From NCBI RefSeq assembly GCF_001465295.1, contig NZ_CP011034.1:2280001-2312000 (forward strand): 32,000 nt of DNA. Reading direction: 5' to 3'. Source of the DNA: Pseudoalteromonas translucida KMM 520 (GTDB lineage Bacteria > Pseudomonadota > Gammaproteobacteria > Enterobacterales > Alteromonadaceae). The notes beneath the pieces were generated by a model. It made no database searches. It was not told the DNA's origin and was given only the letters and a program-made list of their open reading frames with translations. The position numbers were made by a program, and so were the translations under genes. Positions 13,085 through 32,000 of this stretch are shown here, one piece after another. How positions within the stretch are numbered: the stretch's first letter is position 1; each line of letters begins with the position of its first letter.

Positions 13085-13393
13085 ACTACTGAGCCCCTTT
13101 TTAATTTGGCGTTATTTTAAGTATTACAGCGCACTTCGCAATCTAGACTTAGGTCGCATTTACTAAATTAAGTTACGCAAACACAGAGTAAAGTGCCTTG
13201 GTGCTAGTAATCTACTTTAATGAGCGAGTATTTATATAAATTTAATGTGTTTGATATAAACCTAAGTTTTAAGTGAATATTTAAAATGCGGGATTAAAAT
13301 TGGAAAAAAGTAGAATAATGAGAGAAAAATAAATTGAATATAATTGTAGTTTAAAAAGTGGCTTAATTATAAGTAATTAGTTTATACACCCAA

Positions 13394-13498
13394 TGTTGTT
13401 TGAAGTATAAGTTGGCATAAGTACAAACGAGCTTATTGTGCTACAGCTCCGTTAGTGTAGTGTATGTTGGCATAATATTGAAGTAAAAATTGGCATAA
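13394..13498 (+). repeat. CAST left end: terminal TGTTGTTT (13394-13401) plus three direct 18-bp TnsB-type repeats (13403-13420 AAGTATAAGTTGGCATAA, 13458-13475 TAGTGTATGTTGGCATAA, 13481-13498 AAGTAAAAATTGGCATAA)
   Basis: Repeats read directly from the sequence; consensus wAGTrwAwrTTGGCATAA. The layout is a terminal site, a gap, then two adjacent sites. The TGTTG terminus mirrors the Tn6677 left end (TGTTGATG-CAACCATAAAGTGATA...) as I recall it. Confidence 0.6.
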
Positions 13499-15242: not shown

Positions 15243-15995
15243 TTATTTACTCTTATTGAGCGCTGTTTTGCGCCGGTAACTGTCACCTTCGCAATGAATA
15301 ATCGTGGCATGATGAACCAAACGATCGATCGCCGCGACAGTCATTGTTGAATCTTCAAATAGTTCATCCCATTGCTCAAATGATTTGTTTGATGTGATGA
15401 TCATGCTGTGTCGCTCATAGCGATGGGCTATCAATTCAAACAGCACGCTCGTTTCCTGTTCCGTTTTTCGAACGTAACCAACGTCATCAACGATTAATAA
15501 GCTGTATTTATCGAGCTTTACAAGTTCATCTTGCAAGCGTAAATGTCGCTTTGCTTGCTGGAGTTGTTGAACAATCGTTGACGCGGCAACAAACTTAACT
15601 TTATGGCCCTGCTCGATAAGGCCATAACCGATACTACTGGCGATATGCGTTTTACCAAGACCACTGGCGCCAAATAGCAATATATTGCCACCGTACTTCA
15701 ACCAATCCGGCTGATTTATTAAATCAGCAACAAGGGGCTTACTAACCCCATCAACAAGGGTAAAGTCGAAGCTGCTAAGGTGTTTACCCACTGGCAATTT
15801 TGCATCTTTTAAAAGCCGCTGAAGGCGTTTGTCATCGCGTGTCGCAAGTTCAACATGACACAGCTCAGACAAGTATTGCTGCGGGCTCCATTGTTCTTCT
15901 ATCGCTTTTTTGCCCAGAGTATTCCACTGTTGAAGCATGGTGCTAAGCTTTAATTGTTTCAGCATTAAAGGTAACGAGGCCGTGAAGTTATCCAT
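15243..15995 (-). CDS. istB: IS21 helper ATPase IstB
   Basis: Walker A LLFGASGLGKTH and Walker B LLIVDDVGY. Overlaps the istA stop by 8 nt. Confidence 0.9.
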   Translation of the reverse strand: MDNFTASLPLMLKQLKLSTMLQQWNTLGKKAIEEQWSPQQYLSELCHVELATRDDKRLQRLLKDAKLPVGKHLSSFDFTLVDGVSKPLVADLINQPDWLKYGGNILLFGASGLGKTHIASSIGYGLIEQGHKVKFVAASTIVQQLQQAKRHLRLQDELVKLDKYSLLIVDDVGYVRKTEQETSVLFELIAHRYERHSMIITSNKSFEQWDELFEDSTMTVAAIDRLVHHATIIHCEGDSYRRKTALNKSK

Positions 15996-17481
15996 GTAGG
16001 CCTCCCGGTATCATGCTGCTATAAGCGCTCAAGCTGTGTTGCTTTATTGTCATTGTGGGTCTGTTTGATGCAATCACTAAAAATTGCGCTTCACATTCTC
16101 GGATGGCCGGTAATTGTCGCTGAGTAATTGACGCTGCTACAAATCGCCCTAATTGACGCTCACACCCACTTTGTTTCGCTAAATGGAGCAGTTTTACCAT
16201 GTAATAGCTCGCTTCATCCGCTAAAAGCTGGGCATTAACGTATTCCCAAATAGCTTTGTAATTGTCGTTTGGGAGTAAGTCGTCACGTAGTTGTGAGTAG
16301 CGAAATGCCAATGGTTTTTTAACCAGTGCGTCAATAACATGCAAGTAACTAATATTACGTGCACGGCACCCTTTAGAAGCATAGACACGCGCTAACGTTT
16401 GAACTAAATCGCTGCCATAGCGCAGCTCTAAACGGTTGTCATATAAACGAACAAGTAATCGGCTACCAATAAGGCGTGACGGGACGCTATAGGTAACACG
16501 TTTCAATGAAATAGTACTCGTACGTGACACCGTTAGGTAATGCTCGGTGTAATTGACGCTCATCGCCCGTGGTAAAGCGTGTAATTGTCGCTGCTCTACT
16601 GCGTATTTATCACTTACACGGCGATTACGGCGAGCAACAATGTCGGCAATAAACGATTCATAGACTTCTCTTGTCTGAAAGTCATAACTACCACGGATTT
16701 TTAATGCTTGCTCCAGTTGCGATTTAAGATGCCCATGAGGGCTCTCAATAGCCCCATTTTCATGCGCAATACCGCGGTTATTGCGAGTCGCTTTAAAGCC
16801 ATAATGGATAACTAGCTCATTAAAGCGCTCTGTAAAATCATTATCATTAGTATGATTACGATAGGCGGCACTCAGACTGTCTGTACGCACTTCTTTAGGC
16901 ACACCGCCGGCTGCTTTAAATGCGTTTTGTACGCCATCAGAAAAAGCAGCAAAGCTTTCACCGCCGTAAATTACTTGGGCGTAAGCCTAGCCACTGGCGG
17001 GCATACGATAATGAAACAACATATGCTCAAGGGGTTCACTAGCAATGGTAACGGGTGACTTCACATGTGTGAAATCACATATACCTAATAGGCCATACTC
17101 GTGTGTTTGCAGGAATACGACCTCTTTGCTTGAGCCATACAGTGCCCGCCATTTATGAATTCGACGCTCTAATGTACGCCGTGAGCTCGGGTTAAATTTG
17201 TCGGTGTGAAACTCGCAAAGATGATCAAAAATTCCCACCGGAGTTAACGTTGCATCACCTTGAAGTAGAGGGACAACAATACTGTCCCAGATAGACTCAA
17301 GTGGATCTATACGCGTTCGCCATTGGCGTTTATTAGACAATGGCTGCTCATCCAGTTTATCAATGCGCCTTGCTGAACGTTCAGAAATACCTGCTTTCGC
17401 AGCCGCGATAACTTGGCTATTACGCTTTCTATGTTTCATATAAATAGTGACCTGCTGATCAGTGATTCGTGTTCCCGGCAC
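15988..17481 (-). pseudogene. istA: IS21 transposase IstA interrupted by a single in-frame amber codon
   Basis: Track ORFs 16987..17481 (HTH N-terminus) and 15988..16902 (DDE core) are in the same frame. The stretch between them reads through as ..RMPASG*AYAQVIYGGESFAAFSDGVQNAFKAAGGVPKEVRTD.., with TAG at 16987-16989. Confidence 0.85.
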
Positions 17482-17978: not shown

Positions 17979-18962
17979 ATGAAACCTATCGAGAAAGCAA
18001 AAGCACAAAAGCTTGTGCTTAAGCTAGAATCTGGCAACTTCGACGAAAACGATATCGATAATATCTTCATGCGTTTGAGGGCATACTCTCATGGAAATCG
18101 GATATTTCGTGAAATCGCCGACTTCGTTGCTCACAATGATGAGAGGAATCAAGGGATATCGGTTGAGTCATTAGAGGCATTTTATCTAAGTTTTAAATAC
18201 TTTCTAGAGTATGTCTCACCGAAGAAATCGCTAGACATAGGAAGCCCGTTTCCACTTTACGTGAAAAAATTGATGAAATATCAGATTGATAAGTGCAAGG
18301 ACGCAGATCTGAAAGAAAAGTTTAATGTTACTAAGCAGCGCTTAAAATCAAGAGTTGATTCAATTTTTTCTGAAGACAAGAAAAATAAAAAAGCCTTTAT
18401 GAAGAAGCCGAAAATATCTGACGACACGATTGGAGCGCTTCAGCACATATTAGGTTTCATAGGTAGCCACCCTGCTTTCGATCAAGAGCAAGTGATTTTA
18501 GAGCTTCTAGCAGTAATCAAAGCGAATAAACTGCATGTAAATGAAGCTGAATTACTAAAGCATTCTGACAAAATAGCTGCTTGTGTAGCACTTCTCTTGC
18601 ATGACGCCACGTTTGAATATGGAGGTCACAAGCAGGGTTTCTGTAAGATCTCTTGCGAGAAGACATCTATATCTTACAATCAGAAATTTGTAGATAAAGA
18701 CGGGAACCCATCAGAGCATAAAGAATCATTTGGCAATATTCAAGTTCAAGGTCACGTAGTATTAGAGAAAGATGGAAAAGATCTAACAGTATGTTATCCA
18801 TTGATGACAACGAACCTATCCGTGGAGGACTGGTGCGATGACGATATGTTTGTTGTTGAGCCAATCACTGAAGATCACCCAAACTACTTACATAGAAAAG
18901 TTATCTTTGATCAAGATCTTTGTTTTACTGAGGGCGGTAAAATTGGGGTGATCCATACCTAA
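17979..18962 (+). CDS. Hypothetical protein (327 aa), no motif recognised
   Basis: Long ORF with GGGAAAA upstream of the ATG and AT-rich cargo-type composition. I recognise no catalytic or binding motif. Confidence 0.6.
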   Translation: MKPIEKAKAQKLVLKLESGNFDENDIDNIFMRLRAYSHGNRIFREIADFVAHNDERNQGISVESLEAFYLSFKYFLEYVSPKKSLDIGSPFPLYVKKLMKYQIDKCKDADLKEKFNVTKQRLKSRVDSIFSEDKKNKKAFMKKPKISDDTIGALQHILGFIGSHPAFDQEQVILELLAVIKANKLHVNEAELLKHSDKIAACVALLLHDATFEYGGHKQGFCKISCEKTSISYNQKFVDKDGNPSEHKESFGNIQVQGHVVLEKDGKDLTVCYPLMTTNLSVEDWCDDDMFVVEPITEDHPNYLHRKVIFDQDLCFTEGGKIGVIHT

Positions 18963-19132
18963 CGCCCGCAACACCAATGTCTGATATTGGCACAAAGCCG
19001 TCCTTTGGCTCTAACTCATCTTTGTCCAAAAATGAGTTTACCCGACCATCTGCTTCTCGCTCTAACTCGAATATCAGCTGGATAGTAGAGGTGCTATTAT
19101 TAAATATAACCTTTTCTGGCTTTGAGGTATCT

Positions 19133-19582
19133 ATGCCTAGCGATATTCAACCTAGTGCTAATAATAAATTTGTAGATATACTTAGCAATGGAAAAGTTAA
19201 TTTAAGCTCAAACCCTTTAGATGAAATTGAATTAATTCAGCGTGGTTTAGATATAAAAAGTGTTGAGAAATTTAGGCTTGAGTTAGATTGGGATATTCAA
19301 TCCTTTGCTAAAGCAATTGGTACAAATACTAGAATTTTCGAACGTCATAAAAAAGAGCATAAACGTTTAAATGCAACTTTGAGCGAAAATACCTTTGAGT
19401 TGGCTCATTTAGCATCAACTTGTATTGATTACTTTGAAAATATTGAACGATGGAATAAATGGCTAAATACATGCTCCTTACAATTTAGCTCTAAAACACC
19501 TTTAACATTTGTAAATACAATTGCGGGTAGAAGGTTAATTAGGAACGTTGTTAATAGCCTTAAACACGGTTATAACGCTTAA
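19133..19582 (+). CDS. Xre-like/DUF2384 (MbcA/ParS-type) antitoxin-like protein
   Basis: I prefer the ATG at 19133 (GAGG 7 nt upstream) over the track start at 18977, which adds low-complexity sequence. The HTH-like middle (DIQSFAKAIGTNTRIFERHKK) and the C-terminus (TPLTFVNTIAGRRLIRNVVNSLKHGY) resemble the DUF2384 toxin-binding domain. Confidence 0.55.
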   Translation: MPSDIQPSANNKFVDILSNGKVNLSSNPLDEIELIQRGLDIKSVEKFRLELDWDIQSFAKAIGTNTRIFERHKKEHKRLNATLSENTFELAHLASTCIDYFENIERWNKWLNTCSLQFSSKTPLTFVNTIAGRRLIRNVVNSLKHGYNA

Positions 19583-19613
19583 AAAGACCCCAGCGTTTGC
19601 TGAGATCTTTTTA

Positions 19614-19762
19614 TTTACCCTCTGCCTTTTCGGCAGTTAAAAGTTACAATTTGTGGTTGTTTACTTCCCGGCCTAACTTCAGCTGCCTACTCGGCAGTTC
19701 ACACTTAGCGGAGTTGACGTCAAAAATTCTAAATATTTCCAGCTGCCTACTCGGCAGTTCAC
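19614..19762 (-). CRISPR. Type I-F CRISPR array with 3 repeats and 2 spacers, transcribed on the minus strand from a ~117-bp AT-rich leader below cas6f
   Basis: Minus-strand sense. R1 19762-19735 is GTGAACTGCCGAGTAGGCAGCTGGAAAT. Spacer 1 19734-19703 (32 nt) is ATTTAGAATTTTTGACGTCAACTCCGCTAAGT. R2 19702-19675 is GTGAACTGCCGAGTAGGCAGCTGAAGTT. Spacer 2 19674-19642 (32-33 nt) is AGGCCGGGAAGTAAACAACCACAAATTGTAACT. R3 19641-19614 is TTTAACTGCCGAAAAGGCAGAGGGTAAA, which is divergent. The repeat closely resembles the Tn6677 repeat GTGAACTGCCGAGTAGGTAGCTGATAAC as I recall it. Confidence 0.9.
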
Positions 19763-19879
19763 TATTAAAAATAGTTTAAATTCCTATAAACACCAAACTG
19801 TTAAACGTATTTAAATTATTTACCCTTATTTTTAATCAATCAGATAACTCATTGAAAATTAATGGGTGTTTTAAAACTA

Positions 19880-20482
19880 TTATAAAAGGGTATTTAAAGA
19901 AGGAACCGTACCTAGAAATATTTGATTTGTAGCAAAGCCATAATTGTTAAACTGATTTTTTATGGATTCAGCATTTTCATTTTTTTGTATATGCAAAACA
20001 TAACTTTGACCATTGCCTTTGCTTGATACGGGTATTGAATGAAAATGGCCTATGTCCTTTGCCTCAAATTTATATTCAGGGTTGTAAACTTCGCCTCTGG
20101 CTTCAGCTCGTTTTTTAGCTCGCTTTAATCGCCTTTGCTTTTCGCCAACAAATGCTTTTGCTACCGATTGGTTGCGAACAAACATGACTTCGCTTTGGTT
20201 TACTGGTACTTCAAGTATTTTTGATAAGCCAAATAACTTGTCATGAGCCATCATCTCAAAATAGCTTTGCTGAGATAGATTGGTTAATTGCTTTTTATTT
20301 GTTGATACAAACGCTAATTCATTACCTATTGTTTGCTCATTCCATTTAGGAAAGCACACACCAATATTACTTATTTCACGTGAGCTCATAAACCCATGCA
20401 AAATACCGATACAACGCCCAGCAAGAAGGCTTACATCACAACTTTGGGGTAAATAAGTAATGGTAAAATAATAGCGCTTCAA
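19880..20482 (-). CDS. cas6f: Cas6f (Csy4) crRNA endoribonuclease, CAST type
   Basis: 200 aa. The N-terminus MKRYYFTITYLPQ...CIGILHGF...NIGVCFPKW parallels the Vibrio Tn6677 Cas6 (MKWYYKTITFLPE...LHGF...NIGVSFPLW). There is a 4-nt ATGA overlap with cas7f, and the gene is followed by the array. Confidence 0.85.
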   Translation of the reverse strand: MKRYYFTITYLPQSCDVSLLAGRCIGILHGFMSSREISNIGVCFPKWNEQTIGNELAFVSTNKKQLTNLSQQSYFEMMAHDKLFGLSKILEVPVNQSEVMFVRNQSVAKAFVGEKQRRLKRAKKRAEARGEVYNPEYKFEAKDIGHFHSIPVSSKGNGQSYVLHIQKNENAESIKNQFNNYGFATNQIFLGTVPSLNTLL

Positions 20483-21507
20483 CCTTTACTCCTTTGAAAC
20501 AAGCCACCTTTGATCAGCACTGCCGCAATAAAGTGAATTGAGTTTGATTGTTCACTTTGCTCTAAACCATGCTTTTCCATGTGTTTAATATGCAAAGCAA
20601 TGCGCGGGAGTAATGAATAAAAGTCTGAATGGCTCTTAGGTGTTCTGTGTGCAACTAATATTTGCTTATCTGCGCCATACTCGTGAGTGCGTAAAGGTTT
20701 GTAACCTTCCTCATACCAATCATCAATAGTTTGGATAGCAGCCCCTACTTTTTGTGAATTCAAACTTGCTGCTTTTTTATCGCCTACTTGAGTATATGCA
20801 AGTTGTTTAGATGACATACCTTGTTCAACATTATCTACAAACTTTTGACTAGGATGAACCTCTTGGCTAAATGCATTTTTAATTTTTGCGGTTATATCTA
20901 AATAACAATAATTTTGAGGATTGCTTAGCCCTTCTTGAATAGATTCTGACAACGTTAATAATGCCGTTTGATTATTTTGCCAGTTGCCTTGCCATTTTAG
21001 TTTTTGTGCACCTTCAACAACAATCGGGGCTGCGTGCTCAGTAAGGATTTCAATATCAACATTTGGTGATTGGCGGTTACGCCAAAGCCAGTTGCCCATC
21101 AGTATATTTTTAGCATAGCGCGTTGCAACTTCATTAAGGCCATTGTGTTTTTTATAGGTTTCGAAAAACCGTTTTAACCAATAAATAACTTTAGGGTCAT
21201 CACATACATGTGGCTCAATACAATTAGCCTCAACCCTGAGTGAAAAACGACAAAATAGCTCATTTACCGTTGGAGGTACATAACACACATCAATTGTTTG
21301 AGGGTTTCCAAACGCGAGATCTTGTGGCGCTAAATTTTTAGCCACATTTTGCTTTTGATACGCATCGCCAAACCCTGACTTCTGCCCAACTAATTTATTT
21401 TGCTCTATTTGTAGCGGTTCAAAGTCAGACTCTGGTGTTTTATAAAAAAACACCGCTTTACTGGGTGAGAGCGAACGCGTGTAACTTAAGTGCCGAGGTA
21501 ATTGCAT
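20479..21507 (-). CDS. cas7f: Cas7f (Csy3) backbone subunit
   Basis: 342 aa. The N-terminus MQLPRHLSYTRSLSPSKAVFF and the C-terminus ..HFIAAVLIKGGLFQRSKG parallel Tn6677 Cas7 (MKLPTNLAYERSIDPSDVCFF ... HFLMANLIKGGMFQHKGD). Confidence 0.85.
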   Translation of the reverse strand: MQLPRHLSYTRSLSPSKAVFFYKTPESDFEPLQIEQNKLVGQKSGFGDAYQKQNVAKNLAPQDLAFGNPQTIDVCYVPPTVNELFCRFSLRVEANCIEPHVCDDPKVIYWLKRFFETYKKHNGLNEVATRYAKNILMGNWLWRNRQSPNVDIEILTEHAAPIVVEGAQKLKWQGNWQNNQTALLTLSESIQEGLSNPQNYCYLDITAKIKNAFSQEVHPSQKFVDNVEQGMSSKQLAYTQVGDKKAASLNSQKVGAAIQTIDDWYEEGYKPLRTHEYGADKQILVAHRTPKSHSDFYSLLPRIALHIKHMEKHGLEQSEQSNSIHFIAAVLIKGGLFQRSKG

Positions 21508-23558
21508 TATTCATACTCAAACTTAGACTTTTTCATAAGCATAGACTCTTTTTGAACATCCATAACCCAAAATGCGTCATGAAAGAACTGCTTAGCCCCT
21601 GCGTACTTTACTGATGTATTGCTAACACACTCTAACAGCCCAATTACGGGCTCTGCATAACAATGGTATTCATGTAATGCTGCATCTCGCTTTACGGGTT
21701 CTTCAAGCGCAGCCAAGCCAATTGCAGCGGGTCTTAAATTAAAGTTACTGTTAAGGGCATCAATTAATTGTTCAAAACTTTTAACTACTTTTTTTGAAGG
21801 ATATAACCAACTGCCATTTGACGATTTTGCTTTAAGTTTTTTAAACAGCTCGCTCGGTTTGGTATGTACATGGCACCAGTCAATATTTTGATATAACGAA
21901 GGTGGATGCATAGTCCCGCCTGCAAATGAAGACGGTAGTGCGGGCTTTATAAGCTGACTATTTAACTTATCTAACAGCTCAGTATTTGGTACAAAAAGTC
22001 TAAATACTAAATCGAGTGTTATGTCACATTTTGGTTTATCGATAATTCCAGATCTTATTACATGACTACGCCCTGCAACTTGTTTTAACTTGCTTGGCTC
22101 AGGTAATGGTTTACCTGTATGTAATTGATAGTTTTCAATGTAAATAGCACTGCCAATACACTTAATTGAAGGGTCTATAAAGTTTTTTAGCTTACGCTCA
22201 AAGTTATGAGCAAGCCCATTTAAAGCAGTAAGTGACGGCATGCCTTGAATATACGGATTAGCCATTGCCTCAGCATCAAACACTCGCATATCTTGGCAAT
22301 GTACATACACTATCTGCTCATCATTTAATATTTCTTGTTCAGCTGCACAGTGAGTAAATACATAGTTTAACTGCGCTTTAAACAGTCCCATTAAATTAGG
22401 GTGATACGCAAAGCGTTTGAGCTTACTTAAATTACCAAGGCTCTCATTTAGTACGTTACTAAATTGGCTAATACAGTTAGTAATACTCTGATCTAAGTAA
22501 TGCCTTACCCACTCAGGGTAAACTTGGTTTTGCGCGTTATTTTTAGCTTCAAGAATATTATCAAGCCATAACTGCAAGCTAACACGTACTTGCCTAATAG
22601 CCGCTACTCGCGCTAATCGTTTTTGCCTTAACGTATTAAACTGTTTAATGCCTACCAACACCAAAAGCGCCTGTTGAAATTGACTACTTAATAGCGCACG
22701 AATTTTAAATGCTTTCTCAATATCATTATTGGCTACTTTAGAGCGGTTAACAGCCTTTGAATATGTTTTAGGAAAGTAACGCAGCACTCTTATATTGCCG
22801 CCTACTGAGCTTGCTAAATCGCCAACATTGGCAGGTCTTGAGTGCTCAACTAAAGCAAAATTTAACTTACGATCTGTTGTTAATTGCTGAATTTTAGCCA
22901 GCATTGCGTGGCTTACTACAGGCGTAACCACAAGGTAGCTTTGCTGAAATGGCATTTGTAATTGTGGTGAAAAAGAGCTTACTTCTAATGGGAACTCTGC
23001 CACTGGCAACTGCTGTTTTATTTTACCCGAGATTTCTAAAACCGCCTTTTTAGTAAACCCGTATGCTCTTATTAAATTAATCCAAACAGGCTCTTCATTA
23101 ATTAACAGCCTTGCTAAACAAGTCACTTCACCTTGCCAATTAAACGAGGTTAAAAATAGCTTTGCATGATTAATTTCAGCACTGTTGTGCGACCAGCCAA
23201 AACTTAAAGGTAATGACCGGCTGCAAATGCCCGCAATATCTTCACTTACAACTTCACTAATTAAACGTTGATGGCTTACTCGTATATCGGGGTATTTTAA
23301 ATTATGAGTATGAAACCATTTCACTTCGTTAATGCACTTACTCAGTAACACTTCATCGCGTAGTACACTTTTAGCAGTTCTTGCACTTGTTAAATCATCA
23401 ATCTCACTTCGCTTATAAACAAGATTAATGAGCACAGTCAGCGCTAGTTCTTCAAAGCCATCTACCTCGACATGAGACGTGTATGGAACGAACAATTTTC
23501 TAAGTGCTGTGGTTTTTTCTTTTAGTGGTTCAATTGCAAGTGCATCTTGTAAGTTCAT
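21507..23558 (-). CDS. cas8f: Cas8f/Cas5f natural fusion (large subunit of the I-F3 Cascade)
   Basis: 683 aa. The N-terminus ..KLFVPYTSHVEVDGFEELALTVLINL.. parallels Tn6677 Cas8 (..RAFRPLTPHIAIDGNELDALTILVNL..). No separate cas5 is present. There is a TAATG overlap with cas7f. Confidence 0.8.
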   Translation of the reverse strand: MNLQDALAIEPLKEKTTALRKLFVPYTSHVEVDGFEELALTVLINLVYKRSEIDDLTSARTAKSVLRDEVLLSKCINEVKWFHTHNLKYPDIRVSHQRLISEVVSEDIAGICSRSLPLSFGWSHNSAEINHAKLFLTSFNWQGEVTCLARLLINEEPVWINLIRAYGFTKKAVLEISGKIKQQLPVAEFPLEVSSFSPQLQMPFQQSYLVVTPVVSHAMLAKIQQLTTDRKLNFALVEHSRPANVGDLASSVGGNIRVLRYFPKTYSKAVNRSKVANNDIEKAFKIRALLSSQFQQALLVLVGIKQFNTLRQKRLARVAAIRQVRVSLQLWLDNILEAKNNAQNQVYPEWVRHYLDQSITNCISQFSNVLNESLGNLSKLKRFAYHPNLMGLFKAQLNYVFTHCAAEQEILNDEQIVYVHCQDMRVFDAEAMANPYIQGMPSLTALNGLAHNFERKLKNFIDPSIKCIGSAIYIENYQLHTGKPLPEPSKLKQVAGRSHVIRSGIIDKPKCDITLDLVFRLFVPNTELLDKLNSQLIKPALPSSFAGGTMHPPSLYQNIDWCHVHTKPSELFKKLKAKSSNGSWLYPSKKVVKSFEQLIDALNSNFNLRPAAIGLAALEEPVKRDAALHEYHCYAEPVIGLLECVSNTSVKYAGAKQFFHDAFWVMDVQKESMLMKKSKFEYE

Positions 23559-23561
23559 AAG

Positions 23562-24743
23562 TTACCACGGCGCTATAAATTGTTTTTTTGTTAGAGGCTT
23601 TTCAGCTGCGAATGCTTGTTGTAGTTCAATCACTTGGCGTAAATAAAATACATGGCTATCAGCTCTGAGCTGTTCGTGCTTTTTTTGTGAATAAGCACAG
23701 TTTAAAAAGGCTTCTTGATGAAGCCTGTAAACTTGCTCTGTAGTAGTGTTTAACAATACTGCGGCATCAAAAGTACAAAGCAGTAAGTCACCAATATTTG
23801 GATGTTTAGCTTTAGGGTTACTATCAACTAATTCGACAAAATAACTAATAATCTCATCAATTACTTTGTTTTTCCGGTTACTTGTTGCAGCTATTTGACC
23901 ATCACGGATTAAATCGCCATAAACAGAGCTGAACTTAGTTTTATTAAAAGGGTTAAGTTGCTTGAGTCGCGCATTATTTGTGAGTAAATCTAATTCAGTG
24001 GTAAGGCTTTCAGGCCAAGTATTAAAGTAATCAACAAAAGCGCAGTTAAAGTCTGCATCACTTACATCAAGTTGCTTAACCTTCGCAAACCACGATATCA
24101 ACCCTACTATTTTTTGGCTGTTACTACTTGCAAGCGCAATTGCAATTTTAAAGTCTGCATCGTTTAACTGTTCACTATTGGTTATTTTACAACCGCAAAC
24201 ACACTCTAAAAACGCCTCAGAGGCTCTGTAATCAATTAAGTCATAGCACTCCTTACAACGTGTAATTAATTGTGACTTATGCTTATGACACGCCTTATAG
24301 GGCTTTAAATGCCAATAAAAGGGAATATGGGAAGATTCAGACAAGCATTTAATGCAAACAGGTATGTTATCAGTACGAAGTAGCTCAAGGGGAATAGCCA
24401 GTTCATTTCGACTTACTGCGGCAAGGTTGCCAAATTTAAAATTACTGCGCCTCCAAGCAAGTGCAAGAATGTCACCAGCGTTTACATCTGCTAATTGAGC
24501 AACCAACTTAAGCGCTCTTATTCTAAAGCTGCTCGCTTGCCTAGCATGATAAACATCAACTTTACTCAGCGCTAACGGCAGCGCACCTTCAAGCTCATTA
24601 TCTTGCTCTGCAAGCCATTGCCACAAAATATCAGCAAGCTCACTATAGCCATTGTATGAGTTATCCCTTGCAAGCCTCAGCAAATAGCTTTCAAGCGCCT
24701 CATCTGGGTAAGATTTTGTTTGAACTAAAAAATGCATCGCCAA
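23562..24743 (-). CDS. tniQ: TniQ (TnsD-family target selector of the CAST)
   Basis: 393 aa. The N-terminus P.EALESYLLRLARDNSY matches the TniQ fold signature (DESLESFFIRVA..NGY). Has a Cys-rich zinc-finger region (CIKCL...CHKH...CKEC) and a C-terminal ..APW. Lies 3 bp upstream of cas8f. The start may be the TTG at 24743 or the ATG at 24737. Confidence 0.85.
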   Translation of the reverse strand: MAMHFLVQTKSYPDEALESYLLRLARDNSYNGYSELADILWQWLAEQDNELEGALPLALSKVDVYHARQASSFRIRALKLVAQLADVNAGDILALAWRRSNFKFGNLAAVSRNELAIPLELLRTDNIPVCIKCLSESSHIPFYWHLKPYKACHKHKSQLITRCKECYDLIDYRASEAFLECVCGCKITNSEQLNDADFKIAIALASSNSQKIVGLISWFAKVKQLDVSDADFNCAFVDYFNTWPESLTTELDLLTNNARLKQLNPFNKTKFSSVYGDLIRDGQIAATSNRKNKVIDEIISYFVELVDSNPKAKHPNIGDLLLCTFDAAVLLNTTTEQVYRLHQEAFLNCAYSQKKHEQLRADSHVFYLRQVIELQQAFAAEKPLTKKQFIAPW

Positions 24744-24770
24744 CCTAAACTAAGAAAATCTTAGTTTAGG
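24744..24770 (-). promoter_or_regulatory. Perfect 11-bp inverted repeat CCTAAACTAAG aaaat CTTAGTTTAGG abutting the tniQ start (candidate Xre operator and/or RBS-occluding hairpin)
   Basis: Read directly from the sequence. The core CTAAG-N5-CTTAG recurs in the xre promoter at 29242-29256. A TTGACC -35-like hexamer lies at 24798-24793. Confidence 0.4.
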
Positions 24771-24811: not shown

Positions 24812-27800
24812 TTAATCTTTTGAAACATCTAAAACAAATATATCAATCAGCCCTACAAGATTTTTAGGTAAGTCATTTTCTAATTTTGCTTTAAGTTCAT
24901 CTGCGCTTTTCAAGCCATGCTGCTTTCTATTCGCTACCTTTTCTTCAGCCCCAAACCAAATAACAAGATAAATACCTTGTCCTTCAGCGTCAGGATGAAT
25001 TGAATATCTTTCAGCCAGTTGGTTTCCTGCTGCTGAAAACAGTTCTGTATGCCACTGCCCTTTAGCTTCAATCACAAGTAATCTTCGAATACCATCCATT
25101 ACTTTGGAGGCAGTAATATCAATTCTATTTTTATCTTTTGTTTGATGCTCTGCATTGATAACTATACTGTCTGCTTCTAAGCGAGGCTTCAAATAGTCTG
25201 CAATAATTTCTACTGAGCTAACTTCGTCAAGTCGAACTCCGCCTTGAGAATAAAAACGATTTCCAGGGTTAAACTCCCCACCTTTAATATCTTTTTGATA
25301 TTTATCTAGCTCATACAAGACTCTATCTCTAAGTCCTTCAACTGTAACAATCTCACAATTATCCAAAAGGTCTATAACCTTTGAAATATTTGGAGGAATA
25401 AAGTTTCTCATAGCTAAAGCACGAATTTGATTTGCTCTCATACTTTTAAGGTTTTGGCACATAACCTGAAAACGAGAGTCCTCAATTAACTGTTCAATAA
25501 TATGAATTGTTCTCTCAGAAGCGTCCAATTCAATTTGCCAAGATATATCAACCAGAAATCGATATGCTCTTTCTCCGTCAGGGCTAGAAGTGCCATATGA
25601 GGAAGGCAAGTTAACTTGTGGCCAATCTTCAATAAAGCGATCTAATAATAGATATATTTTATCACTAGATAAACTTGGAAAAGTATCGCGGCTTCCTGAG
25701 TTTAAACTACTTGATATTCCCTCGAATAAAAATATTGAGCTTTTCTTCTGAGTAAGGAAATTAAAAAGCTTTTGGGAATCGCATAAATTCAAAAAATAAA
25801 AAGCTCTTAAAAACCAAAATTGTATGATTTTCTCTTCAGACTTATCTATATGAGGTGACTCAATTCGACCCAGCCATTCATCGCAACGAATTAAGATCAA
25901 ACCTTTAAGCTGTTCTTTATCACCATAATGAACGGCTAAATCAAATAAAATATCCAACGCATAATAGCTCAGGCCAGAATACTTGTTTAACCACTCTAAG
26001 GGTAAATTGGCTTTAAATTCACTAAATATTTCATCGTCTCTTAGTACTTCTACTTCAGGGTGTTCGCATTTAAACTTGTCTAATTGAGGCTCAACATACT
26101 CTTTTAAGTAATTTTCTTTGGAAGTTACATCAGGAAATAACAAACGATCAATTTCACACTTAAGAAGACCACGTTCATCTTCAGTTACTGCGTCATAATA
26201 AATATTACATCTAGTTTTCACAGCAGTAAGTATTTGCTTACTAATATTGCCTAGATTCCCCTGCATACGTATTGTTTCTATACACAAAGCATACAAAACC
26301 GTTTCAATAAGTAACCACTGCGATAGACTCCTCAACTCAGCAAGTTTCCTTAAATCAGGTACGTCAGGAGCAATCAGGCTAGTGCAGTTTTTTAATGAAG
26401 TTCTCACCAGTTCTTCATCACCAAACTCTTTTTGTATATTTTCAGGTTCAAATAACAAACACTCTGAAAAATTAACTAACCACCCGAAATGCCCTCCAGA
26501 TTCGATTAAAGCGCGGTTTCTCTGAATAAAGCTAATGTTGTCTGCACGATTTTTGCTCTCACATTTTTTGTTCTTTCTATCTAGTCTATTAAACTTCGAA
26601 TTTCGTTTTCGTATCTGTAATCCAATAGAGTAATCTGTATTATTTGCTTTTGCCCACTCTCGCATAAATTCTAGCTTTTGATTAGCATGTTTACGCATGA
26701 TACTGCGTATCTGATTATTCAACTTGAGCTTATTATGCTGAAAGTAATAATGCCTCGTAATAAAAGTCGACCACAGTTCTAAATTGTTTTCTTCAAATGC
26801 TAAATTGATTAGGTATTCAATATCTTCAACGGAAAAACATAATCCAGAATGCGCACCGCAATATGGTTCAAACCTACTTTGTTTCAGATCGTAGATTTTT
26901 TTACGTTCAGTTATACCAGAAAAAGCGGTTTTAAAAAGTCCTTGTCTTAAGTCTTTATTTTCTCTGATTGCTTTTACAGACTTACAGAAATTATCACTTC
27001 CTTCCCTGTGATAATTTAAGTTTTTTAGCCATCCCCATATCTGTTCTGGGTTATATGGGAGGCTAGTAATATCAAAGTAATGATCGAGTAATTTACCTAC
27101 AAGCTTACTTATCCCGTCTCTACAAAAACACTCATAGTACTCTTTGCCACAACTGCAAGTTAACTCATCAGTTAAAAAATTTAATAATCGTTCTGTATTT
27201 TCAGCACTTAAAGTCCATACCAATTTATTGATGAAATATCGATTACCTTGTAACCGTCTATCATCTAGTGAGGTTTTTTCAGTAGGGTAGAGATTTGAAC
27301 ATGCTCGAAAGAAGCGTTTTAGTATGCCTAAATCAATAGAGTTAGCACCTAAGAATTCAATTCCTTTAGCTGCGATGTTTAGAGAGGTATTACTAGACTC
27401 AGATATTAATGTTTCGAGTATTTTAATATCATCAGAATCAATAAGCGAAAACAAACATTCCATAGCAAGCCTTCGAGTATCTAATCTCTCATTAGGTTCA
27501 AATAGTATGTTTATGAGATTGGGGGATAAGTGCTCAATAACCTGAGATTCTTTGATTATAGTTAATACTAAGTCTCGTAAATGCCCATCACTTTTATTTT
27601 CTAAAATTGGCTTAATATCTTCAGCCATATTTTTATCAAAAAAACCAACTGTACTGTATCGCCGCCAAAAATCACCTCTTCTAAAATACGGGTCATTTTT
27701 TTCAATTTGTGTTAACTGTGATAAAAGCAGCCTTTTAGATGAGCGATCAAGTTGTGAGGGGTCTCCATTAGCTAGCACAGCATAAGGATCAAGCTTTATA

Positions 27801-28852
27801 ATTTCATGTTGTAGCGCTAACCCGCCGAGAGTAGCCATCCAACCAAGCATTCCTCTCAATTCATCACGAACAATATTATTTGAAACTATTACTGTTTTAC
27901 AAACTCTTAAAGTTAGTGGATCTTGATTACTCTGTATTCGCTTTACTAAATACTGGGCGGCACAATATTCAGCAATAATTTTGTGAACAGCTCGATGCTG
28001 ATCAACATCATCTGCAAGTTTAAATAAGCGAGAATCTATAATGCTTGATAGATCTAAGCCCTCTCTTATTAGTGCATTAATATTGGGGTATAAGTATTCC
28101 TCTGATAAATCACTAACACTTACTCCTTCAGCACCTGATAAAAGAGTTTTAGAAAATACTTCTGAAGCGAGCTCTATTTTTTTCTTATACGCGAAATCTA
28201 TTCCAGTTCTTCTTTTTGCCGAAGGGTTAAGCTCTTTAGCTAAGTGCTCAACTGCTTTTTCAAAGATGGAGCTTTTACTTTTAAATTTTCGATTACTTTC
28301 AATGTAGGCATCTGCAAACATTTTCAAAAACTGAGGGTTCGGAAGTAAAACATCTAAATTAAAGCGTGAAACTTCTGTATAAAAATTATCAAAATCTTCA
28401 TCAGGCAAGTGGTGATCAAAAATCTTCCTTTGCTCTAATTCATTAAACTCCCTCAGCCTTAAAACCAGAGGAACACATTCTAAATACTCTATAACCGCTT
28501 GTGCTGAGTCACTGCTCCATTCACTTGAGCGACTTGATATTATTAAAGTTTCAGGTTTTGACTCTATGACTTTAGCTAATAATTTGTGTATACCACAGTT
28601 GTCAATCTTGGATAGTTCATCCAAGGCATCTATAACAAGAAAATCCCTAAATAATTTACTAGAATACAAATACTTGCTAGCAGTGACTGGGTTAGTATTA
28701 GCCTTACTTGCTAAGCTTTTAAGAAACTCAGTCTTACCAGCTCCTGGTTCTGCTAAAATAATTACACACTTAGAGACACTCAAGAGTTCATCTTCAGCAT
28801 AAATTTGCTCATCATTTTCAAGAGTACGCTGAAGATAAATATTTGAAGTCAT
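24812..28852 (-). CDS. NACHT-like STAND P-loop NTPase (1346 aa) with a helical/HEAT-like repeat body and a C-terminal PD-(D/E)xK-like nuclease-fold domain
   Basis: Walker A ILAEPGAGKTEFL (aa 31-44), Walker B FLVIDALDEL (aa 71-80), sensor-like LIISSRSS and NPQFLKMF. The middle is long and helical with HEAT-like segments. The last ~130 aa read ..INAEHQTKDKNRIDITASKVMDGIRRLLVIEAKGQWH.., which fits an E...D...ExK pattern. Confidence 0.75.
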   Translation of the reverse strand: MTSNIYLQRTLENDEQIYAEDELLSVSKCVIILAEPGAGKTEFLKSLASKANTNPVTASKYLYSSKLFRDFLVIDALDELSKIDNCGIHKLLAKVIESKPETLIISSRSSEWSSDSAQAVIEYLECVPLVLRLREFNELEQRKIFDHHLPDEDFDNFYTEVSRFNLDVLLPNPQFLKMFADAYIESNRKFKSKSSIFEKAVEHLAKELNPSAKRRTGIDFAYKKKIELASEVFSKTLLSGAEGVSVSDLSEEYLYPNINALIREGLDLSSIIDSRLFKLADDVDQHRAVHKIIAEYCAAQYLVKRIQSNQDPLTLRVCKTVIVSNNIVRDELRGMLGWMATLGGLALQHEIIKLDPYAVLANGDPSQLDRSSKRLLLSQLTQIEKNDPYFRRGDFWRRYSTVGFFDKNMAEDIKPILENKSDGHLRDLVLTIIKESQVIEHLSPNLINILFEPNERLDTRRLAMECLFSLIDSDDIKILETLISESSNTSLNIAAKGIEFLGANSIDLGILKRFFRACSNLYPTEKTSLDDRRLQGNRYFINKLVWTLSAENTERLLNFLTDELTCSCGKEYYECFCRDGISKLVGKLLDHYFDITSLPYNPEQIWGWLKNLNYHREGSDNFCKSVKAIRENKDLRQGLFKTAFSGITERKKIYDLKQSRFEPYCGAHSGLCFSVEDIEYLINLAFEENNLELWSTFITRHYYFQHNKLKLNNQIRSIMRKHANQKLEFMREWAKANNTDYSIGLQIRKRNSKFNRLDRKNKKCESKNRADNISFIQRNRALIESGGHFGWLVNFSECLLFEPENIQKEFGDEELVRTSLKNCTSLIAPDVPDLRKLAELRSLSQWLLIETVLYALCIETIRMQGNLGNISKQILTAVKTRCNIYYDAVTEDERGLLKCEIDRLLFPDVTSKENYLKEYVEPQLDKFKCEHPEVEVLRDDEIFSEFKANLPLEWLNKYSGLSYYALDILFDLAVHYGDKEQLKGLILIRCDEWLGRIESPHIDKSEEKIIQFWFLRAFYFLNLCDSQKLFNFLTQKKSSIFLFEGISSSLNSGSRDTFPSLSSDKIYLLLDRFIEDWPQVNLPSSYGTSSPDGERAYRFLVDISWQIELDASERTIHIIEQLIEDSRFQVMCQNLKSMRANQIRALAMRNFIPPNISKVIDLLDNCEIVTVEGLRDRVLYELDKYQKDIKGGEFNPGNRFYSQGGVRLDEVSSVEIIADYLKPRLEADSIVINAEHQTKDKNRIDITASKVMDGIRRLLVIEAKGQWHTELFSAAGNQLAERYSIHPDAEGQGIYLVIWFGAEEKVANRKQHGLKSADELKAKLENDLPKNLVGLIDIFVLDVSKD

Positions 28853-28904: not shown

Positions 28905-29213
28905 TTAAAATATTTTGGAAGCTTTAATACTATCAAGCAGTTTCGCCTTATCATGCTGGTCTGCTTTACCCCATGCGCAAATTAATTCAGCCAAGTCATC
29001 TTCTTCACAATAAAAGTAAGCAACTGGCACATCTAGCTCTTTAGCTATGCGTTTCATGGTTAAAAAATCAGGGGCATGTTTGCCTTTTTCGTATTGGTTC
29101 ATGCGAGCACTAGCCGTGTTTGGCTCCATTCCTAATGCCATACCAAGCTGTTGCTGAGTAAGGCCAGCTGCTTTTCTTGCAGACTTTAGGCGTGAAGGTG
29201 TTGGAGTTTCCAT
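28905..29213 (-). CDS. XRE-family helix-turn-helix transcriptional regulator
   Basis: LKSARKAAGLTQQQLGMALGMEPNTASARMNQYEKGKHAPDFLTMKRIAKELDVPVAYF is a canonical Cro/C1 HTH_3 sequence. AAGG lies 6 nt upstream of the ATG. Confidence 0.85.
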   Translation of the reverse strand: METPTPSRLKSARKAAGLTQQQLGMALGMEPNTASARMNQYEKGKHAPDFLTMKRIAKELDVPVAYFYCEEDDLAELICAWGKADQHDKAKLLDSIKASKIF

Positions 29214-29241
29214 GTGAACCTTAGCTATAAAACATATCTTG

Positions 29242-29290
29242 CTAAGATTCTCTTAGTATCCAACCCATAAGTGTACTAAGGATATTTTAG
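29242..29290 (-). promoter_or_regulatory. Candidate Xre operators in the xre promoter: CTAAG attct CTTAG (29242-29256) and CTAAG gatat TTTAG (29276-29290)
   Basis: Read directly from the sequence. The half-sites and N5 spacing match the palindrome at the tniQ start. Confidence 0.35.
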
Positions 29291-29302
29291 TTTTTAGAAA
29301 AG

Positions 29303-30079
29303 TTAAAGATAATCTTTTTTCAGGCCGGCCAATCGAATTTTACTAGTTGTAAATTGTTTTGTAACTGAGTCAATATATTGATAAAGGCTGAGCTCAATTT
29401 CATCAAAGCTCGTTCGGTGTCTGTGCTCAATTGTTATACCAAATTCTTTCAAAACTTCTATTAGCTTTGTTTGATGGTTTGTATATTTATATCTTAAGTT
29501 AGTATCTTTAGCATCATTGTATCTTTGGTTTGAGTCCTCAATTACAGCTATTACGTCATTTAATTTTCGATCGTACAGTCTAAAAAAGTTAAATTTACCA
29601 CTTCTAGAGTCTGGGAACACTAAAGCATAATATGTATACAAATCAATACGTTCTGGACTTAACAAGTGGTCCCGTTCAATTTGAGCTGAACAGAATTCTG
29701 CAAAGTTACTTAAGTTGTTGTTATGGTTTGACATTATGCTATTTTCTAATGATAAAGCATACGTTTTCCACCCAATATACACACCCAATCCAGCTAGTAT
29801 AGTTCCAAATATAACAGTCAATTCTTTACTGAAAGATAGGGAATAGATGAACCGTTCATTAACAATTTTTAAACAAGAATTGGTTAAACATAATCCCCAA
29901 GTTAAGTTCTCATCATTGATAAATTCAATTGCAACGCCTATAACTAGCAACAACTGTAGGGAAATATAAAGTAAAAAAAGGAATACAAACCAGCTTTTAG
30001 TTCTAACGCTTAAAAGGTAATTCACCGAAATATGTTTTTTCAAATTGATAAATATGCTCTTAAATTTATCCAATGTCAT
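29303..30079 (-). CDS. Two-TM membrane protein, putative effector partner of the RT
   Basis: TM helices WFVFLFLLYISLQLLLVIGVAIEFI and LTVIFGTILAGLGVYIGW, followed by a ~150-aa soluble tail. I prefer the ATG at 30079 (AAGGA 9 nt upstream), which overlaps the RT stop by 14 nt. The track start at 30118 is a GTG with no SD. Confidence 0.6.
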   Translation of the reverse strand: MTLDKFKSIFINLKKHISVNYLLSVRTKSWFVFLFLLYISLQLLLVIGVAIEFINDENLTWGLCLTNSCLKIVNERFIYSLSFSKELTVIFGTILAGLGVYIGWKTYALSLENSIMSNHNNNLSNFAEFCSAQIERDHLLSPERIDLYTYYALVFPDSRSGKFNFFRLYDRKLNDVIAVIEDSNQRYNDAKDTNLRYKYTNHQTKLIEVLKEFGITIEHRHRTSFDEIELSLYQYIDSVTKQFTTSKIRLAGLKKDYL

Positions 30080-31250
30080 ATTTTCGATCCTTTGGCTCAA
30101 TTTCTTTAAGTCGCTCACTTATTTCGGTGTATTTATCTTTATATAATCTTTTTATAATTCCATTCATATAAACAACTAGGTTAAATCTTTTTTTGTACCA
30201 GTATTTCTCCCTATAACTATCAGGGTAGGTTTCGAGCTTTTTAATTATAAAAAAACAATGTTTTATATCAACTGCCGATGGCAATGGCTGAATATCACTT
30301 AAAGCGTTTTTAAAGTAGCCGTGTTTTGGATGCTTGACCCTTGCTAGCTTGTGAATGCGACCTAAACATCTATCAAAAGATCTGCGATAACTTCTGCTTT
30401 TCCTAAAGTTATTTTCTTGAGCTTTCTTTGTTAATGCATGTACTTCTGCTCTGATTTTTGCAATCTCTTTAGCAGGTAAACGTGGCTGGTCAAACTCAAC
30501 TCTAAGCCCGTGTACCATCAAGGGCTTTATCGAGCTATAAGACACCTCTTCTTTTTGCTCATTTATTGGCAAATCTTTTTGCAGAAGCATGTCTTCAATT
30601 AATTTTTTTGCAGTGTTGAAATTAAAATTAGAAGCTGTACTAGAAACGGAGATATCATCAATGAACCTAGTATAAGTAAGTCCCTTACGTTCTAATCGTT
30701 TAACCAGTAAGTGTTCTAAGTCAAAAAATATTAAGTTAGCTACATAGCTTGAGGTCAATGCGCCTTGAACCAATGTATTTTCAAAGCAACAAACATCACA
30801 TATGAAATCGGCTACTTCATTTGAAAGATCTAAAGTATTAACCAAAATATCTTTTATATGCTCTTTATGAATATTATCGAAGAAATCTGATATATCCATT
30901 TTTAAAAGGCTTTTTGCTCCACAATGCTTTTCAGCACATTTGATGTGGTCTCTGCTATCCTCAATTCCATTAATTAACTTTGGTATAGAACCGTATACAA
31001 ACTCAGGCCAAATTATTTTAGGCTTGAAAAAGCGGTTATTGATTCTTCTCTGAAATTTTCTGGTCAATTTATTAGGACATAAAACTCTTCTCTTAGAACC
31101 ATCACTTTTATATGCAGATTTAACAGGTTCACGATATCTAGAAGAGCTATTTGAGGATATAAAAGCTTCATAATCATCTTCTAAATCTAGAAAAGATATA
31201 AAGTTTTCAAGCTTTTTAATTGGGTCGCCTCGGTAATACTTAATTTCCAT
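30066..31250 (-). CDS. Reverse transcriptase, retron-type or defence-associated
   Basis: RT motifs 1-7 are present: RRVLCPNKLTRKFQRRI, LLKMDISDFFDNI (motif A), LVQGALTSSYVANL (motif B, QGxxTSP-like), YTRFIDDISVS (motif C, xxDD), INEQKEEV, and MVHGLRV (compare retron VTG). There is no endonuclease or maturase domain. Confidence 0.85.
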   Translation of the reverse strand: MEIKYYRGDPIKKLENFISFLDLEDDYEAFISSNSSSRYREPVKSAYKSDGSKRRVLCPNKLTRKFQRRINNRFFKPKIIWPEFVYGSIPKLINGIEDSRDHIKCAEKHCGAKSLLKMDISDFFDNIHKEHIKDILVNTLDLSNEVADFICDVCCFENTLVQGALTSSYVANLIFFDLEHLLVKRLERKGLTYTRFIDDISVSSTASNFNFNTAKKLIEDMLLQKDLPINEQKEEVSYSSIKPLMVHGLRVEFDQPRLPAKEIAKIRAEVHALTKKAQENNFRKSRSYRRSFDRCLGRIHKLARVKHPKHGYFKNALSDIQPLPSAVDIKHCFFIIKKLETYPDSYREKYWYKKRFNLVVYMNGIIKRLYKDKYTEISERLKEIEPKDRKYDIG

Positions 31251-31264
31251 ATAATACCATTTTG

Positions 31265-31481
31265 GTTGGATGCCGTACCAAGCATGCGCTTTTATACCGT
31301 TTCTCTAGGCTAAAGGTTAACCATCACATTCTTTAAGTCAAATCTCAGCAACCACTGGTTAAACTTCGGTACGGCTGATCCATAGCTTGCTATTGCCTCC
31401 GCCAGCCGGAGGCGTGGTGGGGCCCTGAGCGTAGATGACATAGTCACCGTTATGTATGTAGCATACATAACACAGCTGAGA
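31265..31481 (-). ncRNA. Structured non-coding leader upstream of the RT, candidate msr-msd-type ncRNA
   Basis: About 350 bp between tnsC and the RT has no ORF in the track. Local hairpins lie at 31449-31471 (10-bp perfect stem), 31434-31448 and 31395-31413 (7-bp GC stem). Long-range pairings are 31364-31375 with 31272-31282 (GCCGUACCgAAG/CUUGGUACGGC), 31475-31481 with 31343-31349, and 31356-31362 with 31317-31323. Boundaries are not determined. Confidence 0.45.
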
Positions 31482-31572
31482 ATTTTTAATAACCTTAAAT
31501 GCAGTGAATAAGTGAATCACTTACGCAGATTACAATCTAATTGATAATCGACCATAATTCAACAAATTAAGA

Positions 31573-31592
31573 CAGCTTATTTATCTAAGCTG
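31573..31592 (-). terminator. Hairpin CAGCTTA gataaa TAAGCTG followed by T-rich sequence, downstream of tnsC
   Basis: 7-bp stem read on the minus strand. Followed by tcttaatttgtt. Confidence 0.45.
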
Positions 31593-31603
31593 AATAAGTA
31601 AGG

Positions 31604-32000
31604 TTATTTCCTTAACAACTGACTAATCGGCATCCGGTCAGTAAACTTGGTCGCTATAAACGGGTCTTCATCTTGAGAGCTTTCAGGCTTATAAAGTGAA
31701 TAGCGCTCGACTTCGCTTGCTGTTATTTCTGCTACAGGCAAGGTAAATAAATTAGGAACATCCGGAAAGAGTACCTCAAATGCTTTAACTAAATGCTTGG
31801 TTGTGAGAGTTTTCGCGTTGTCCATTAATGCATAAAGTACGGCATCATCTAAAAAGTATTTTAATGTTCTAAAGCAACCTTTTGATAATGAGAACAAAGT
31901 AAACACTGTTGCTTGCTCACTTAAGTTTGGCTTTTCGGCAAATGGCATACGGTTGGCTAGACCAATTATTAGTTGTACAAAATGCTTTGGGTTTTCTGAC
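31604..32000 (-). CDS. tnsC: TnsC (TniB-like AAA+ regulator of Tn7-like transposition), C-terminal part. The 5' end is outside the window.
   Basis: The frame stays open from 31604 to the window edge (..SENPKHFVQLIIGLANRMPFAEKPNLSEQ...). The C-terminal sequence is TniB/TnsC-like (..SKGCFRTLKYFLDDAVLYALMDNAKTLTTKHL..). Its position and orientation match tnsC upstream of tniQ-cas in I-F3 CASTs. Confidence 0.7.
   Translation of the reverse strand, partial: SENPKHFVQLIIGLANRMPFAEKPNLSEQATVFTLFSLSKGCFRTLKYFLDDAVLYALMDNAKTLTTKHLVKAFEVLFPDVPNLFTLPVAEITASEVERYSLYKPESSQDEDPFIATKFTDRMPISQLLRK

Follow-up and report, generated by a model that had tools for sequence, protein, structure and literature searches.

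A probable ffs-homing guide between variant repeats in the CRISPR array of a Pseudoalteromonas I-F3b Tn7-like transposon

CRISPR-associated Tn7-like transposons (CASTs) of type I-F3b sit downstream of ffs, and their homing spacer is always flanked by atypical repeats, the final one of which has lost GTG, gained adenines in its loop and diverged at positions 21-28 (Petassi, Hsieh & Peters 2020, bioRxiv 10.1101/2020.07.02.184150). In the element of A. salmonicida S44 the atypical unit is more active in transposition and cannot be used by the I-F1 interference complex; it is the one I-F3b element for which such privatisation has been demonstrated, and the atypical repeats of Tn6677 proved neither private nor more active (10.1101/2020.07.02.184150). 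Integration by Tn7475 is reduced with atypical repeats (PMC9723613), and for PseCAST in human cells typical and atypical repeats were equally effective (10.1101/2023.03.17.533036).

The window considered here, the whole 32,000-nt stretch of DNA that was analysed, contains a short array that we regard with high confidence as guide module for a CRISPR-associated Tn7-like transposon of type I-F3b, sited in a Pseudoalteromonas chromosome downstream of ffs. The array is placed inside such an element because of the Tn7-like left end at 13394, with its TnsB-site repeats and adjoining CCCAA, and because of the neighbouring tniQ-cas genes (Table 1). Three TnsB-site-like repeats were found at this left end against 0.10 expected, and its first 18 nt recur unchanged in the right-end terminus of four relatives (L001, L002, L004, L007).

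Table 1. Coordinates of the array, the putative transposon end and associated genes and sites in the window.
Feature	Coordinates	Strand	Sequence	Remarks
Target-site duplication	13389..13393		CCCAA	TTGGG on the ffs strand; flanks left end
Transposon left end	13394..13497	+	TGTTGTTTGAAG	terminus, plus three TnsB-site-like repeats
Intrinsic-terminator-like hairpin plus U-run	19576..19613	-		directly after R3; -19.7 kcal/mol, z = -6.99
Array R1-S1-R2-S2-R3	19762..19614	-		directly downstream of tniQ-cas8/5-cas7-cas6
R3	19614..19641	-	TTTAACTGCCGAAAAGGCAGAGGGTAAA	atypical terminal repeat
Spacer 2	19642..19674	-	AGGCCGGGAAGTAAACAACCACAAATTGTAAC(T)	32 nt plus 1; putative homing guide against ffs (SRP RNA)
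R2	19675..19702	-	GTGAACTGCCGAGTAGGCAGCTGAAGTT	first 20 nt as R1; last 8 nt CTGAAGTT
Spacer 1	19703..19734	-	ATTTAGAATTTTTGACGTCAACTCCGCTAAGT	32 nt; ordinary variable spacer
R1	19735..19762	-	GTGAACTGCCGAGTAGGCAGCTGGAAAT	leader-proximal, typical I-F3 repeat
Leader, AT-rich	19763..19879	-		cas6 stop codon to R1, 117 nt; sequence kept in L003, L006, L007
cas6 (Csy4 family)	19880..20482	-		Pfam Cas_Csy4, 84.5 bits; expected pre-crRNA endonuclease
cas7 (Csy3 family)	20479..21507	-		Pfam Cas_Csy3, 227.6 bits
cas8/5 fusion	21507..23558	-		683 aa; Pfam Cas_Csy2 in C-terminal half
tniQ	23562..24743	-		Pfam TniQ
C-box-like operator	24749..24765		ACTAAG-N5-CTTAGT	palindromic; just upstream of tniQ
STAND-type NTPase	24812..28852	-		1346 aa; between xre and tniQ
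xre, C-protein-like regulator	28905..29213	-		Pfam HTH_3; PADLOC Control_protein, 104.7 bits
Two C-box-like operators	29241..29257 and 29275..29291			upstream of xre
tnsC, 3' part	31604..32000	-		last 132 codons; gene continues past window

The closest solved chains to the Cas8/5 protein are Cas8 of 30ga/9gs9 (1e-146) and Cas8/5 of 7u5d, AsaCAST (3e-132), and that to TniQ is the TniQ of 7u5d (9e-70), with V. cholerae TniQ at about 1e-34. A search of every open reading frame in the window for cas1 and cas2/3 returned no Cas1 or Cas3 domain; with adaptation and nuclease genes lacking and its repeats heterogeneous, the array was rejected as an ordinary type I-F1 immune array. Complete tnsA, tnsB and tnsC genes occur in L001, L002 and L004, and L003 starts within tnsA. 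Positions 29597-31999 of the window are 98.4% identical to L001:5655-3253, a 2.4-kb overlap, and the right end of L001 adjoins ffs; by this correspondence we infer that the tnsB, tnsA, right end and ffs of the window's element lie beyond base 32000, the right end about 3.2 kb past the window in an element of about 21.8 kb. The Xre protein has an identical counterpart in L002-L005, and the C-box-like sites (three in the window, 0.15 expected) stand only upstream of xre and tniQ, with none elsewhere and none at the array, the layout published for I-F3b elements (10.1101/2020.07.02.184150).

The array itself consists of three 28-nt repeats on the minus strand with start-to-start distances of 60 and 61 nt, so that between repeat registers spacer 2 measures 33 nt against the canonical 32. 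R1 is identical to the typical repeat of the arrays in L003, L006 and L007. The original prediction, that R1 and R2 share a 20-nt hairpin part and differ in the 8-nt handle part, agrees with the counts (20/20 identical in the former, 5/8 in the latter, where three positions differ), and realignment likewise confirmed that R3 keeps only the stem (CTGCC-GAAAA-GGCAG) and is identical to R2 at 17/28 positions; to R1 it is identical at 20/28. Relative to the typical repeat, R3 has retained the stem, with GTG changed to TTT and the loop from GAGTA to GAAAA, and its last 8 nt are AGGGTAAA, unrelated to the CTGAAGTT of R2. The core CTGCCG-N4-GGCAG, searched with zero mismatches, occurs in the 32 kb only in the three repeats (0.10 expected), and all three fold alike into a 5-bp stem and 5-nt loop at -8.6 kcal/mol each. 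R3 thus displays all three of the published trends (GTG lost, A-rich loop, divergent positions 21-28), and the R2 handle and R3 together fit the pattern reported for atypical repeats around an I-F3 homing spacer (10.1101/2020.07.02.184150), as had been proposed for this array.

Beyond R3, the hairpin at 19576-19613, which was listed as an inverted repeat, is conserved in the relatives and lies just past the convergent gene 18977-19582. A scan of 19500-20000 for consensus promoters and terminators returned no terminator and no convincing promoter and did not list this hairpin; despite that empty scan, direct folding gives a strong hairpin followed by a U-run, a terminator-like structure that would close the array transcript. 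The same hairpin is common to the array and to a convergent two-gene cassette (17979-19582, plus strand), as a two-way terminator. The cassette encodes a 327-aa protein with no assigned function and a 201-aa protein with Xre-like HTH and MbcA/ParS antitoxin C-terminal domains, and is possibly a toxin-antitoxin or defence pair.

Relatives of the element were recovered by exact-protein look-ups plus one genome scan. Five of them (L002, L003, L004, L006, from Pseudoalteromonas arabiensis JCM 17292, and L007, a Pseudoalteromonas MAG) are 94.6-99.4% identical to the window over the block from xre to the array. The terminus TGTTGTTTGAAG abuts the 3' end of ffs in L001, L002, L004, L006 and L007, with a right-end flank of TTGGG in L001, L002, L004 and L007 and of TGGGT, one base further, in L006. 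The adjoining gene is identified as ffs, encoding SRP RNA, by Rfam (RF00169, 73.5 bits); Rfam gave no hit on the whole window because ffs lies outside it. A metagenome scan with the acetyl-CoA hydrolase gene that adjoins the left end recovered an unoccupied site, L008, in which the encoded protein is 100% identical to the window's and the flank 97% identical at the nucleotide level. Here ffs (Rfam 73.5 bits) is followed by CCCAAATTCCTCAT, a single TTGGG and TGCTATAAACTAATTAC..., and then by the window's left flank. This contiguity of ffs, one TTGGG and the flank implies that the window's element was inserted downstream of ffs with duplication of TTGGG; the window's own att site is placed there by inference from the relatives, the empty site and the sequence to the left of the element.

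The counterpart of spacer 2 (AGGCCGGGAAGTAAACAACCACAAATTGTAAC) within ffs is AGGCCCGGAAGGGAGCAGCCACAGTTTGTGAC, identical at 24/32 positions. Of the eight mismatches, five are at 6, 12, 18, 24 and 30, the positions whose bases are flipped out by type I-F Cascade; the other three are at 13, 15 and 25. Inclusion of all five flipped-out positions among eight mismatches has a probability of 2.8e-4 under random placement, and a match at 24/27 or more of the pairing positions a probability of 4.6e-12 per site. The seed (positions 1-5 and 7-11) matches ffs perfectly, and the three mismatches on pairing positions are A for G at 13 and 15 and A for T at 25. The protospacer ends 47 bp from the TTGGG duplication, as seen at the right-end junctions of L001, L002, L004 and L007, and 52 bp from the transposon end, in agreement with the roughly 48-49 bp reported for I-F3 CASTs. 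The PAM is TC (ctggTC|AGGCCC in L001, L004, L006, L007 and L008), as in 96.6% of ffs-homing I-F3 CASTs (PMC12774636), and AsaCAST accepts T at PAM position -2.

On this match, spacer 2 is very probably the homing guide that directs the element to its ffs site. That role had been proposed from the letters of the array, and it now has a chromosomal target near the right end of the relatives, at 24/32 identity in ffs, with L008 tying the window to the site. The proposal had also envisaged a match 45-50 bp outside the right end beside a CC PAM; the distance stood, and the PAM turned out to be TC. Its observation that neither spacer matches within the window also held, at up to 3 mismatches, a result explained by the right end lying beyond base 32000.

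All four relatives in which the array is visible (L002, L003, L006, L007) have kept the terminal spacer together with its two variant repeats. In these the handle that precedes the ffs spacer reads CTGAA(G/A)TT, with TTGAAGTT in L002, and the handle of typical repeats is mostly CTGGAAAT, with CTGGAAAC and CTGGGAAT in L002 and TTGGAAAT in one L006 repeat. The relatives' terminal repeat is TT(T/C)(A/T)ACTGCCGAAAAGGCAGAGGCTAAA, and R3 is identical to it at 25-26/28 positions in the four; conservation of R3 alone is weak evidence, the relatives being so close (~95% identity). The seven leader-proximal spacers of the same four relatives all differ from one another and from spacer 1. Position 6 of the homing spacers, five in all, reads G, T, A, A and G, never the matching C, and the remaining few differences fall at positions 11, 13, 16, 25 and 30. 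In P. arabiensis (L006) the ffs protospacer differs at 25-26 and the insertion is shifted by one base; the spacer of that element does not track the change. At L006:23604-23627 the CAST left end is followed by 5 bp (TGGGT) and then by a second Tn7-like right-end terminus, TGTCGTTTGAAGTATAAG, so that two related elements appear to be stacked in tandem at ffs.

For the ordinary spacers, comparison of spacer 1 with plasmids, phages and IMG/VR (the last with the sixth positions wild-carded) gave chance-level matches of 17-20 nt or none, and the pooled spacers of the relatives gave no match among phages. Against plasmids the pooled spacers gave one good match, that of the leader-proximal spacer at L003:14425-14456 to L088:1501-1532 (NZ_CP033067.1), identical at 31/32 positions beside a CC PAM. 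The target is intergenic, near traG, on a conjugative (MOBH, MPF_F) plasmid of Pseudoalteromonas agarivorans. Such a match is the behaviour expected of a two-pathway element, and offers a natural example of the plasmid-targeting pathway.

The anatomy of array and element, the att site, the periodic guide-target match and the retention of the homing unit are established at the level of sequence; from characterised relatives, a course of events may be projected onto them. Transcription would start from the leader and end at the hairpin after R3, and Cas6 would cleave at the 3' base of each of the three CUGCC-N5-GGCAG hairpins. The first guide, crRNA1, would be fully typical, with handle CUGGAAAU, spacer 1 and the R2 hairpin, a type of guide that directs these elements to plasmids. 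The second, crRNA2, would carry the variant 5' handle CUGAAGUU, spacer 2 (32-33 nt) and the variant R3 hairpin UUUAACUGCCGAAAAGGCAG, giving a predicted mature RNA of about 60-61 nt that starts with CUGAAGUU and ends in ...GAAAAGGCAG. Loaded into TniQ-Cascade, crRNA2 would pair with the conserved domain-IV region of ffs beside the TC PAM, and the resulting R-loop would recruit TnsC and TnsAB for insertion, right end first, about 47-52 bp downstream and just past the RNA gene. The intact Cas6 hairpin of R3 and the mismatch pattern of spacer 2 are in favour of crRNA2 being used.

As to what the variant repeats do, we lean towards a privatising role: with its variant handle and hairpin, crRNA2 would be inaccessible to I-F1 systems, a reading drawn by analogy with the A. 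salmonicida I-F3b element (bioRxiv 10.1101/2020.07.02.184150). A competing account, which we hold possible and give distinctly less credence, accepts the homing guide as real and takes its variant repeats to be neutral, the R2 handle and R3 having drifted within the tolerance of the CAST's own Cas6 and Cascade. The results with atypical repeats in Tn6677, Tn7475 and PseCAST speak for neutrality, as does the expectation that positions 21-28 of R3, being discarded after cleavage, should drift freely. Regulation, the TC PAM or the spacer mismatches would then keep any host I-F1 system from self-targeting; canonical I-F1 systems make poor use of a TC PAM, which counts on the same side. Against neutrality, like changes recur in the more distant PseCAST (handle A-to-G at position 6, GAAAA loop, GTG loss) and in Petassi's comparison of 41 sets of atypical I-F3b repeats, and AsaCAST, the closest solved relative, does show privatisation (10.1101/2020.07.02.184150).

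A further question is whether the mismatches in spacer 2, at the flipped positions and with A for G at 13 and 15, are under active selection rather than drift. If so, reduced DNA identity with ffs would lower recombination, priming or I-F1 use with CAST Cascade binding kept, and the 33rd nucleotide together with the variant handle would amount to a lineage-specific privacy code. At saturated neutral positions, 0/5 matches would be expected about 24% of the time (P about 0.24); because the sixth-position data are compatible with neutral saturation and do not favour selection over drift, we rejected active selection for the sixth-position mismatch and consider the broader proposal unlikely.

Less probable by far is that R3 is simply degenerating, crRNA2 being neither made nor loaded and spacer 2 a functionless fossil. 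Terminal repeats of ordinary CRISPR arrays often degenerate, and the identity of R3 to R2 and R1, only 17-20/28, would suit such decay. Opposed to it, the Cas6 hairpin of R3 is intact and as stable as those of R1 and R2, spacer 2 targets the element's own insertion site at the canonical distance, the unit has stayed in place through the turnover of the other spacers, and the concentration of mismatches on non-pairing positions points to continued selection for Cascade-type pairing; equivalent units, moreover, were active in A. salmonicida S44 and Tn6677 (10.1101/2020.07.02.184150), and plain decay was rejected. Least credible of all is that TniQ binds ffs in the manner of TnsD, which prototypic Tn7 uses for attTn7 and which was the assumed mechanism for I-F3 att sites before 2020, with the likeness of spacer 2 to ffs incidental (for example a past self-acquired spacer): we rejected this on the single tniQ placed in the Cascade operon, an element without acquisition genes, the improbability of the match and its 6-nt periodicity, and the guide requirement for att-site insertion reported by Petassi et al. 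(10.1101/2020.07.02.184150).

Apart from the guide module, the slot between tnsC and xre (window 29214-31603; L002:3630-8671, L003:3267-4944, L006:5163-9554, L007:6163-9547) is a hotspot of defence-system exchange between conserved flanks. In the window and L001 the occupant is a type IV retron (RT_IV 456 bits, 2TM_IV 175 bits in the window), in L002, L004 and L006 it is Gabija (GajA/GajB), and in L007 SIR2-HerA. L003 has two proteins there, 234 and 236 aa long, which gave no PADLOC hit, have no recorded Pfam family and are candidates for an uncharacterised defence pair. Upstream of the retron RT a 353-bp non-coding gap (31251-31603) is the expected place of the msr/msd ncRNA; it gave no Rfam hit at the gathering threshold, and an exact-protein look-up of the RT led only to a 5.7-kb contig. 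This slot may be a more productive lead than the array.

The 1346-aa NTPase is assigned to the STAND type on sub-threshold Pfam scores (nSTAND3 27.0 bits, cut-off 27.2; NACHT 24.1, cut-off 26.7); it had no PADLOC hit, and an exact-protein look-up returned no record. Its gene lies between xre and tniQ, at about 96% identity, in L002, L003, L004, L006 and L007, all of the relatives that cover the interval, and immediately upstream of tniQ the Xre operator is still present. A fixed gene for cargo or defence is one possible identity; a lineage-specific CAST accessory is another. Elsewhere in the cargo, 15243-17481 (minus strand) is an IS21-family insertion with istB (IstB_IS21, 227 bits) preceded by two open reading frames, 16987-17481 (no Pfam hit) and 15988-16902 (Mu-transposase C-terminal domain), which may be the halves of a disrupted istA. 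Outside the transposon, at 6369-7788 (plus strand), an MFS sugar-transporter gene is split into open reading frames 6369-6941, 6942-7226 and 7153-7788, likely a pseudogene or a sequencing frameshift.

Among described systems, the element of A. salmonicida S44 (Tn6900/AsaCAST, PDB 7u5d) resembles this one in its short array with a typical leader-proximal spacer and a degenerate terminal ffs spacer (10 mismatches, several at every sixth position, against 8 here), in the atypical repeats around that spacer, the att site downstream of ffs and the TC PAM, and in Xre operators that stand upstream of xre and of the tniQ-cas operon and are absent at the array (10.1101/2020.07.02.184150). With its TniQ and Cas8/5 it provides some of the closest solved homologues of the window proteins. 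It differs in host (Aeromonadales, against Alteromonadales here) and in repeat sequence, protein similarity is only moderate (TniQ 239 bits over ~380 aa), and the gene for the 1346-aa STAND NTPase between xre and tniQ, known here from sequence, sets the window's element apart from it.

PseCAST (Tn7016, Pseudoalteromonas sp. S983), which has been put to use in human genome engineering, shares the genus and the I-F CAST architecture. Its atypical unit, GTGACCTGCCGTATAGGCAGCTGAAGAT-N32-TAATTCTGCCGAAAAGGCAGTGAGTAGT, has the handle CTGAAGAT, and the CTGCCGAAAAGGCAG hairpin, the loss of GTG and a CTGAAGxT handle are as here (10.1101/2023.03.17.533036); R3 and R2 are identical to their PseCAST counterparts at 20/28 and 24/28 positions. 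The two elements differ in their typical repeats (4/28 positions), in length (31 kb against ~21.8 kb here) and in cargo. Tn6677 (VchCAST, I-F3a) is likewise an RNA-guided Tn7-like element with TniQ-Cascade and an att-site spacer flanked by atypical repeats; unlike the present one, it carries its homing spacer, which is not private, in a separate Xre-regulated array, and its att site is the protein-coding guaC, where the wobble positions of codons coincide with the sixth positions. Its TniQ is far more distant from the window's (1e-34, against 1e-69 for that of 7u5d).

The element is a new Pseudoalteromonas member of the I-F3b/ffs CAST class known since 2020, and no new kind of system. No new principle comes with it. 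Its value is as a clean instance, found in nature, of how I-F3b CASTs categorise their guide RNAs, and the set of six near-isogenic elements shows the guide positions that are free to vary. Pseudoalteromonas is the genus of PseCAST, a CAST reported to be exceptionally active in human cells, and a compact relative (about 21.8 kb) whose ends, att site, PAM context and repeats, both typical and atypical, are defined could serve as an orthogonal integrase candidate.
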